This document shows, one piece after another, positions 95-60,046 of a DNA stretch of 64,000 nt (position 1 is the stretch's first letter; every line of letters starts with the position of its first letter). A model generated the notes under the pieces. The model ran no database searches and had not been told where the DNA came from. It saw nothing but the letters and a program-made list of their open reading frames with translations. The stretch lies in NCBI GenBank assembly GCA_951406725.2, contig OX597842.1:14446001-14510000 (forward strand). The letters are read 5' to 3'. The translations under genes and the position numbers were made by a program. This DNA is from Octopus vulgaris. Its lineage: Eukaryota.

Positions 95-189
95 AGCTCT
101 AGATACGTTTTCCGCAGTGTTTATATCTACTTCGATATTCTTAACTGTTGAATTGTAAATCACATGAAATAGAAAGGAATTCGTCCAAC
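95..189 (-). CDS. Module 3 exon [33 protein letters not shown]
   Basis: 95 nt, phase 1-0; the gene continues left of the window. Confidence 0.88.

Positions 190-60046: not shown

Follow-up and report, generated by a model that had tools for sequence, protein, structure and literature searches.

Group 3 of the octopus adhesion GPCRs (Ritschard et al. 2019, PMC6408891) includes Ocbimv22016967m (A0A0L8HDZ7; hereafter P0099), on which supplement 3 of that paper places LRRs, an LU domain (cd00117, residues 371-447, called with the CDD model by InterProScan at E 6e-8), an HRM (539-608), GAIN, GPS and an adhesion 7TM, the same order as in the gene reported here. The text of the paper names LRR and Death as extra domains, and SEA, as a term or as accessions, has 0 matches in its supplement 3. 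Our own profiles read P0099 as LU-SEA-HRM at 370-609, with one SEA-HRM unit against the three found here. Genes of group 3 are described in PMC6408891 as showing enrichment in the axial nerve cord, suckers, skin and gills. Molluscan and arthropod LU-GPCRs were treated by Paramonov 2026 (PMC13719153), who reports an N-terminal LU and whose architecture legend includes LRR, GPS and 7TM, as here. Compared by that legend rather than by the figure itself, the two differ in that the legend has neither SEA nor HRM; we found no mention of a repeated stalk in the text. According to Lyukmanova 2024 (PMC11595613), an LU-bearing GPCR of starfish came before the molluscan report. An earlier note on the DNA analysed here knew of no described protein with this domain order, a statement that does not survive the LRR, LU, HRM, GPS and 7TM of Ocbimv22016967m in the supplement of PMC6408891, nor the molluscan LU-7TM receptors of PMC13719153.

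Counterparts of the stalk are found in vertebrates. ADGRG6 (GPR126) and ADGRG4 share with our gene the SEA-HormR-GAIN-7TM stalk and a cleavable GPS (PMC6954182, PMC13197933), but they bear a CUB-PTX or PTX head and one SEA-HormR, in place of the LRR-LU head and the three units found here. In the lamprey, the predicted adhesion GPCR XP_032828479.2 (P0060) has five HRM matches before GAIN-7TM and thus resembles our gene in its repeated HRM. It differs in its CUB head and in the arrangement of the repeats, since four HRMs stand in direct tandem, followed by a spacer and the fifth HRM, whereas here the head is LRR-LU and HRM is copied together with SEA. The spacer of P0060 ends in an RVRVRR site and is SEA-like by eye, although unscored by our own profile. 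The lamprey repeats probably arose independently of the octopus ones. The architecture of ADGRA2 and ADGRA3 is LRR-Ig-HRM-GAIN; these receptors have in common with our gene the LRR head and HRM-GAIN-7TM, but our gene has LU and SEA and no Ig.

The window, that is, the whole stretch of 64,000 nucleotides that was analysed, comes from the 2.8-Gb genome of Octopus vulgaris (G000:C29:14446001-14510000). It is microsatellite-rich and has 35% G+C; distances in kb given below are counted from its position 1. Eighteen exons on the minus strand, running from 60046 down to 95 and all with AG/GT ends (18/18), join into 625 aa with phase agreement at 17/17 junctions and 0 stops. The same number of small in-frame exons, with the same end points, had been proposed in the earlier note. 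Random AG..GT sets of matching lengths, used as a control, gave 0 stop-free chains in 10,000, with a minimum of 10 stops. In order, the chain holds four LRR exons of 72 nt, an LRRCT exon, two LU exons, three SEA-like plus two HRM exons twice over, and the opening exon of a third such unit. The exons, followed by three decayed LRR exon copies, are:

59975..60046, minus strand: LRR exon, 72 nt, phase 2-2
49229..49300, minus strand: LRR exon without the consensus Asn, 72 nt, phase 2-2
38696..38767, minus strand: LRR exon, 72 nt, phase 2-2
32365..32436, minus strand: last LRR exon, family-typical, 72 nt, phase 2-2; matches P0008, P0006 and P0003
26006..26175, minus strand: LRRCT cap exon with CxC motif, phase 2-1
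23178..23269, minus strand: LU domain exon 1, phase 1-0
20175..20358, minus strand: LU domain exon 2, ending CCxxxxCN, phase 0-1; 12 Cys across both LU exons
18177..18271, minus strand: module 1 SEA exon a (exon chain and family profiles)
14217..14269, minus strand: module 1 SEA exon b (exon chain and family profiles)
10626..10783, minus strand: module 1 SEA exon c (exon chain and family profiles)
7723..7837, minus strand: module 1 HRM exon a, with a Pfam HRM match below cut-off (E 0.014)
6349..6434, minus strand: module 1 HRM exon b, internal type, 86 nt, ends in phase 1
5306..5400, minus strand: module 2 SEA exon a (exon chain)
4058..4110, minus strand: module 2 SEA exon b (exon chain)
3453..3610, minus strand: module 2 SEA exon c (exon chain)
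2204..2318, minus strand: module 2 HRM exon a (exon chain)
1139..1257, minus strand: module 2 HRM exon b, internal type, 119 nt; type as in O. bimaculoides P0003
95..189, minus strand: module 3 SEA exon a; the gene runs on left of the window
56321..56393, minus strand: decayed copy of an LRR exon, whose 73 nt, flanked by AG and GT, would shift the frame on use
50652..50723, minus strand: decayed copy of an LRR exon, lacking splice sites, with approximate limits
37310..37381, minus strand: decayed LRR exon copy, acceptor lost, within a 1.4-kb tandem duplicate, limits approximate

The introns of the LRR region (36149-38895, 40000-52050 and 55000-64000) consist of tandem multi-kb duplicates with 74-94% identity, some of which bear live LRR exons and some decayed ones. 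Transposon remains were also seen, namely RVT_1 reverse-transcriptase fragments at 54068-54445 and 53144-53458 (region 52800-55100) and a mariner HTH at 33701-34123. The ORFs at 45322-46553 and 15916-16491 are retroelement-like by eye and have no Pfam match. A 158-aa Asp/Ile-rich open frame built on an 18-nt tandem repeat at 26671-27144 of the plus strand has no Pfam match either.

The domain calls LU, SEA-like and HRM, made in the earlier note, hold. The family profile that spans LRR and LRRCT matches Slit/TLR caps, and everything between LRRCT and HRM is made up of LU or SEA exons, with no Ig domain. The LU domain has the conserved cysteine pattern ending in CCxxxxCN; its 12 Cys are invariant in 13/13 aligned relatives and all of them align with those of human LYPD1 (6zss) across the full domain, at E 0.32. 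Pfam UPAR_LY6_2 matches LU exon 2 at E 0.0093, below cut-off. In the AF2 model of the relative P0003 the LU part has pLDDT <50, and the Atlas model of P0003 404-489 compares with a UPAR/Ly6 cluster at TM 0.51, under the bar of the tool. Judged by its sequence, the LU domain is predicted to have the three-finger fold.

For the SEA units, Pfam SEA gave no match to SEA exon c of the window and matches below cut-off in three relatives (P0023, E 2.9e-4; P0056, E 5.5e-5; P0042, E 0.013). In P0003, a close relative, AF2 gives each of the two SEA units a ferredoxin-like fold, with pLDDT of about 60-86. A structure search of the SEA part of this model against 48,161 chains had among its matches 2e7v (Z 8.1, rmsd 2.5, 83 aligned), whose title names a SEA domain, and TMPRSS6 82-209 (Z 9.1, rmsd 3.0, 102 aligned), residues that we take to be the SEA domain of that protein. 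These SEA chains (Z 8.1-9.1) tied with MscS domains (Z 9.2) and other ferredoxin-like folds, and the structures listed by Atlas for the SEA part were ferredoxin-like folds of a generic kind, SEA clusters being absent from the list; feature searches in Atlas yielded no usable match. The model thus predicts SEA units with the ferredoxin-like beta-alpha-beta-beta-alpha-beta fold. As search patterns we used GSVVV, the motif of SEA autoproteolysis, and the furin site; no G-S/T-V/I-V/I (GSVVV-type) and no R-x-K/R-R sequence occurs in the 1343 aa of the full gene model described below. Human G6, in which SEA is cleaved by furin, differs from our gene in this respect.

The HRM shows the pattern C..W(P)..T..G...C...C..W...C. 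Pfam HRM matches fall below cut-off in 4/13 relatives (best E 0.002), and the family profile draws in proteins with strong Pfam HRM matches. As with LU, the HRM part of the P0003 model has pLDDT <50.

Left of the window, 14 more exons (G000:C29:14434819 to 14406726) encode the rest of SEA3, HRM3, GAIN, GPS and 7TM. The exons for GAIN, GPS and 7TM lie 22-39 kb left of position 1 and bear out the earlier note, which had taken the gene for an adhesion-GPCR-like receptor from its ectodomain. The full model has 32 exons, keeps frame in 32/32 and stays open for 1343 aa; the first stop comes after TM7, 7 codons short of the end of the last exon examined, and the C-tail is shorter than that of P0008. 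The order along the reading frame is LRRn-LRRCT-LU-(SEA-HRM)x3-GAIN-7TM, with HRM3 directly before GAIN, where HRM normally stands (PMC12716839). The five GAIN/GPS exons are homologous to those of P0008 and P0006 (Pfam GPS E 6e-13 and 2e-14). In the GPS sequence, CSCDHL↓TSFALLM, both the H-x↓T/S cleavage triad and the tethered-agonist sequence are intact; the His at -2 is important for cleavage (PMC13197933). Five 7TM exons, in frame with the ectodomain, yield 7 hydrophobic segments, and the last of them matches aGPCR structures at E 3e-15, an exon that alone cannot tell aGPCR subfamilies apart (L2 2.8e-15, G2 3e-14). N-glycan sequons number 34 in the 1343 aa, 21 of them in the three SEA-HRM units.

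The flanks were examined over 120 kb on the left and 80 kb on the right, and the search for a signal exon went out to +144 kb. On the right there is one further LRR exon at about +66.1 kb, and a 100-N assembly gap (G000:C29:14515446-14515545; +69.4 kb) lies 3.3 kb above this last LRR exon found. Searching by tblastn with the N-termini of 26 relatives revealed no signal-peptide or LRRNT exon on the strand of the gene up to +144 kb, and no family exon was found in the 62 kb beyond the gap. Of the two ends that the earlier note had proposed to look for, GAIN/GPS/7TM on the left and LRRNT plus signal peptide on the right, only the first was therefore recovered. The signal-exon matches obtained belong to neighbouring genes only, at +134.8 kb (opposite strand) and at -101 kb. 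The exon at +134.8 kb was considered as an inverted start of this gene and rejected, as it heads a complete sibling gene, D2. The next family gene on the same strand (G000:C29:14326001-14345000, window -101 to -120 kb) has a signal/LRRNT exon and at least 10 LRR exons.

A signal exon is present in both siblings of our gene, D1 (C29 13.84-13.98 Mb) and D2 (14.58-14.69 Mb), which have opposite orientations. Because the alignment with D1 holds at 95% right up to the 100-N gap, the missing 5' end is most simply, and probably, unassembled at the gap. No assembly gap interrupts the gene between +69.4 kb and its last exon.

A tree based on GPS plus 7TM used 19/21 chosen rows (2 were dropped, with no GPS motif match), with no ADGRA sequence among them. 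Our gene and the published group-3 protein P0099 fell in an 11-row clade with support 100/100, and the gene is almost certainly an octopus group-3 adhesion GPCR gene. The earlier note had drawn an analogy with ADGRA receptors, with LU at the position of Ig. An ADGRA-type receptor of this kind would fit the LRR head and the HRM-GAIN part, the NCBI automatic name of P0099 ('adhesion GPCR A3') and the presence on several relatives, in precomputed lists, of PF26588, presumably a GAIN model named after ADGRA. However, the six human sequences nearest to group 3 are ADGRG1-6 (PMC6408891, supplement 3), the best PDB matches of the relative P0023 are G2, G6 and G4, and SEA stands between LU and HRM, a placement shared with G6 and G4 (PMC6954182, PMC13197933). 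The analogy is weak at best, and we consider an ADGRA-type identity highly improbable.

A profile search of 1.84 billion proteins produced 69 matches, and names were obtained for 20. LRR-LU-(SEA)-HRM-GPS-7TM receptors, each with one HRM, are found in Haliotis, Nucella, Dreissena, Ylistrum, Plakobranchus, Argonauta and the annelid Lamellibrachia, so that the order LRR-LU-SEA-HRM-GAIN-7TM extends over abalone, whelk, zebra mussel, scallop, sea slug, Argonauta and tube worm. A lineage-specific receptor, as had been proposed, is incompatible with this distribution. Homologue names in a word index had also suggested octopus specificity (Octopus in 8/8 and in 19/20, one unnamed), which was overturned by the profile search. 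Such a head is an old lophotrochozoan design that databases contain and that has partly been published, so that it comes as less of a surprise. Breaks of gene models at the small exons have left relatives under the names 'toll-like receptor 5', 'slit homolog' or 'Ly6/PLAUR protein', and their annotation is corrected here.

Some relatives depart from this design. The Octopus models P0010, P0016, P0019, P0020, P0021, P0027 and P0093 end in LU-SEA-HRM-SEA(partial), with no GAIN/7TM, and are possibly secreted; P0010 has two LU domains. C-terminal extras are a Death domain in P0029, an ankyrin-like part after a SEA fragment in P0032 (by eye) and a 12-aa repeat tail in P0018.

The new part is the tandem SEA-HRM stalk, which has 1, 3 and 8 units among close relatives. 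We found no paper describing such a stalk in a search that had subscription journals outside its reach; the figures or supplements of PMC13719153 may show it. Single-exon searches of the genome, to be taken as lower bounds, gave 65/86 candidates for LU, 29/101 for SEA, 70/73 for HRM and 54/64 for GPS. Grouped by position, the family exons form at least 79 loci, 55 of them on C29-C31, and more than one HRM exon is present in 2/79, our gene (3) and a gene on C8 (8). LU and GPS occur together at 41 loci. Of these, 31 carry a single HRM exon, in 8 no HRM exon was detected, and the last two are our gene, with 3, and the C8 gene, with 8; at the 38 loci outside this set, more than one HRM exon was never seen.

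The C8 paralogue (C8:79.00 to beyond 79.23 Mb; L049-L068, L079-L084) has no assembly gap and contains, besides at least 32 LRR exons, a tandem array of eight SEA-HRM units, each about 8 kb long. Its six central units are ~99-100% identical, and HRM exon b of unit 1 has 100 nt instead of 101, reflecting either a one-base frameshift or a base error. The siblings D1 and D2 have one SEA-HRM unit each, which suggests that the extra units are dispensable in close relatives. They share 99.15% identity over 33 kb, from SEA to 7TM, with a more divergent LRR region, and both are about 93-99% identical to our gene along its 5' half.

The earlier note had described HRM as the multiplied element. A module is indeed multiplied, but the repeated unit is SEA plus HRM, never HRM alone, and the last HRM still stands directly before GAIN. 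Repeated HRMs as such are not unique, since the lamprey receptor has five and other proteins have 5-47 in tandem. Tandem HRM domains, 5 to 47 in number, make up almost the whole protein in P0053, P0055, P0064, P0081 and P0087-P0091; in P0088 there is a Sushi match as well.

Compared with D1, our gene is colinear at 93-99% down to +9.5 kb, and the two part after SEA1. HRM1-SEA2-HRM2 are C8/P0003-like; likeness to D1 returns at HRM3b and the first exons of GAIN (-20 to -23 kb) and is lost further on. The gene is therefore a mosaic of the kind that unequal recombination would be expected to produce. The second SEA of O. bimaculoides P0003 and our SEA3 have 86% identity and a 4-aa deletion in common; together with the type of HRM2 exon b, this indicates that the tandem stalk is older than the split from O. 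bimaculoides.

Purifying selection acts between the modules, with dN/dS of 0.44, 0.48 and 0.42 (p 0.003, 0.002 and 0.0002) between the three of them, values that average over old history and are compatible with recent gene death. Comparisons with C8 are weaker and mostly non-significant (W2 vs C8 0.69, p 0.2); those for LU (0.5, p 0.23) and GAIN (0.65, p 0.057) are not significant either.

Splicing was checked in the HRM1b-SEA2a region, a stretch with this one junction. Contigs from 3/4 runs (X1, X4 and X5, taken as RNA on a guess of the tool) connect an HRM exon b with the SEA exon a that follows it and imply that tandem stalks are spliced in the family. One contig has the exact 949-nt skip of our gene, yet differs from it at 5/87 nt; the loose ends of the spliced contigs have 0-1/30 mismatches to the C8 paralogue, against 4-5 or no match to our gene. 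The spliced contigs come from another copy, with the C8 gene as best match, and none in this region was assigned to our gene. At this junction, the spanning sequences that the earlier note asked for were thus seen for relatives and not for this copy. No RNA record is listed for 20100-23400. In relatives such as P0003 and P0008, LRR and modules stand in one database model.

The gene might on these grounds be a young pseudogene, a recent recombinant that lost its 5' end (or was mis-joined at the gap) and whose tripled stalk is passive. The mosaic ancestry (D1-like, C8/P0003-like, D1-like, then unlike D1), the three decayed LRR exons, and the lack of both a signal exon and an assigned contig would all agree with it. 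A dead gene sits poorly, however, with a frame kept in every one of the 32 exons, with an alignment to D1 that is still 95% where it reaches the gap, and with the gap-free assembly from there to the last exon, and we regard this account as unlikely. We find it fairly likely that this copy is expressed and whole.

The five-exon SEA-HRM unit begins and ends in phase 1, and LU, SEA and HRM are each likewise phase 1-1, so that any of them can be copied or dropped with the frame kept. Such phases would also suit optional splice cassettes, by which one gene would make receptors whose stalks have one to three units, or LRR-LU-SEA forms that are secreted, a possibility compatible with the other readings. 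ADGRG6 tunes its ectodomain and reach by splicing, and the shape of that ectodomain tunes its signalling (PMC6954182); database models without SEA (P0002), without SEA+HRM (P0006) or without HRM (P0024-26), or ending after the second SEA (P0016, P0019, P0027), look like products of such a system. These models are, however, predictions for different genes and not isoforms of this one, and we think it improbable that splice cassettes explain the stalk.

The extra HRMs could instead offer multivalent binding to a ligand, either a peptide or a protein. The HRM of secretin-family receptors binds peptide hormones (PMC12716839), long pure HRM arrays of up to 47 copies exist in other proteins, and constraint on the internal HRMs is no weaker than on the SEAs (dN/dS 0.28-0.43 vs 0.44-0.54). 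On the other hand, HRM is here always copied together with SEA, and the near-identity of the six central C8 units is what neutral or length-selected amplification would produce; a multivalent role seems to us very unlikely.

The reading that we prefer, and hold with moderate confidence as a whole, is that of a cleavable group-3 adhesion GPCR whose LRR-LU head sits on a stalk that is lengthened and glycosylated. As a glycosylated spacer, the two additional SEA-HRM units would hold the head further from the membrane. We lean slightly towards this spacer role, since the copy number is cassette-like, the C8 array is homogeneous, cleavage motifs are lacking and the ADGRG6 ectodomain offers a precedent (PMC6954182). 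By analogy with established aGPCR biology (PMC13197933), GAIN would cleave itself at the GPS, the LRR-LU head would bind a putative ligand carried by another cell, the matrix or a microbe, and either this binding or a pull would expose the tethered agonist and lead to G-protein signalling. Comparison of the loci suggests that the cassette may be gained and lost by unequal recombination, giving rise to the stalks of 1, 3 or 8 units present in the genome.

The field has yet to explain how the tethered agonist of aGPCRs is controlled by the length of the ectodomain and by force (PMC13197933), and near-identical siblings with 1 vs 3 units, together with a relative with 8, offer a ready-made natural series for this question. 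More tentatively, and in a reading that we consider rather unlikely, the family may combine two independent axes of exon cassettes, the LRR head setting what is bound and the SEA-HRM stalk (1, 3 or 8 units) setting the reach or force threshold. Its approximately 80 loci would then form a natural molecular-ruler series, in which stalk length would be under selection and possibly switched by splicing.
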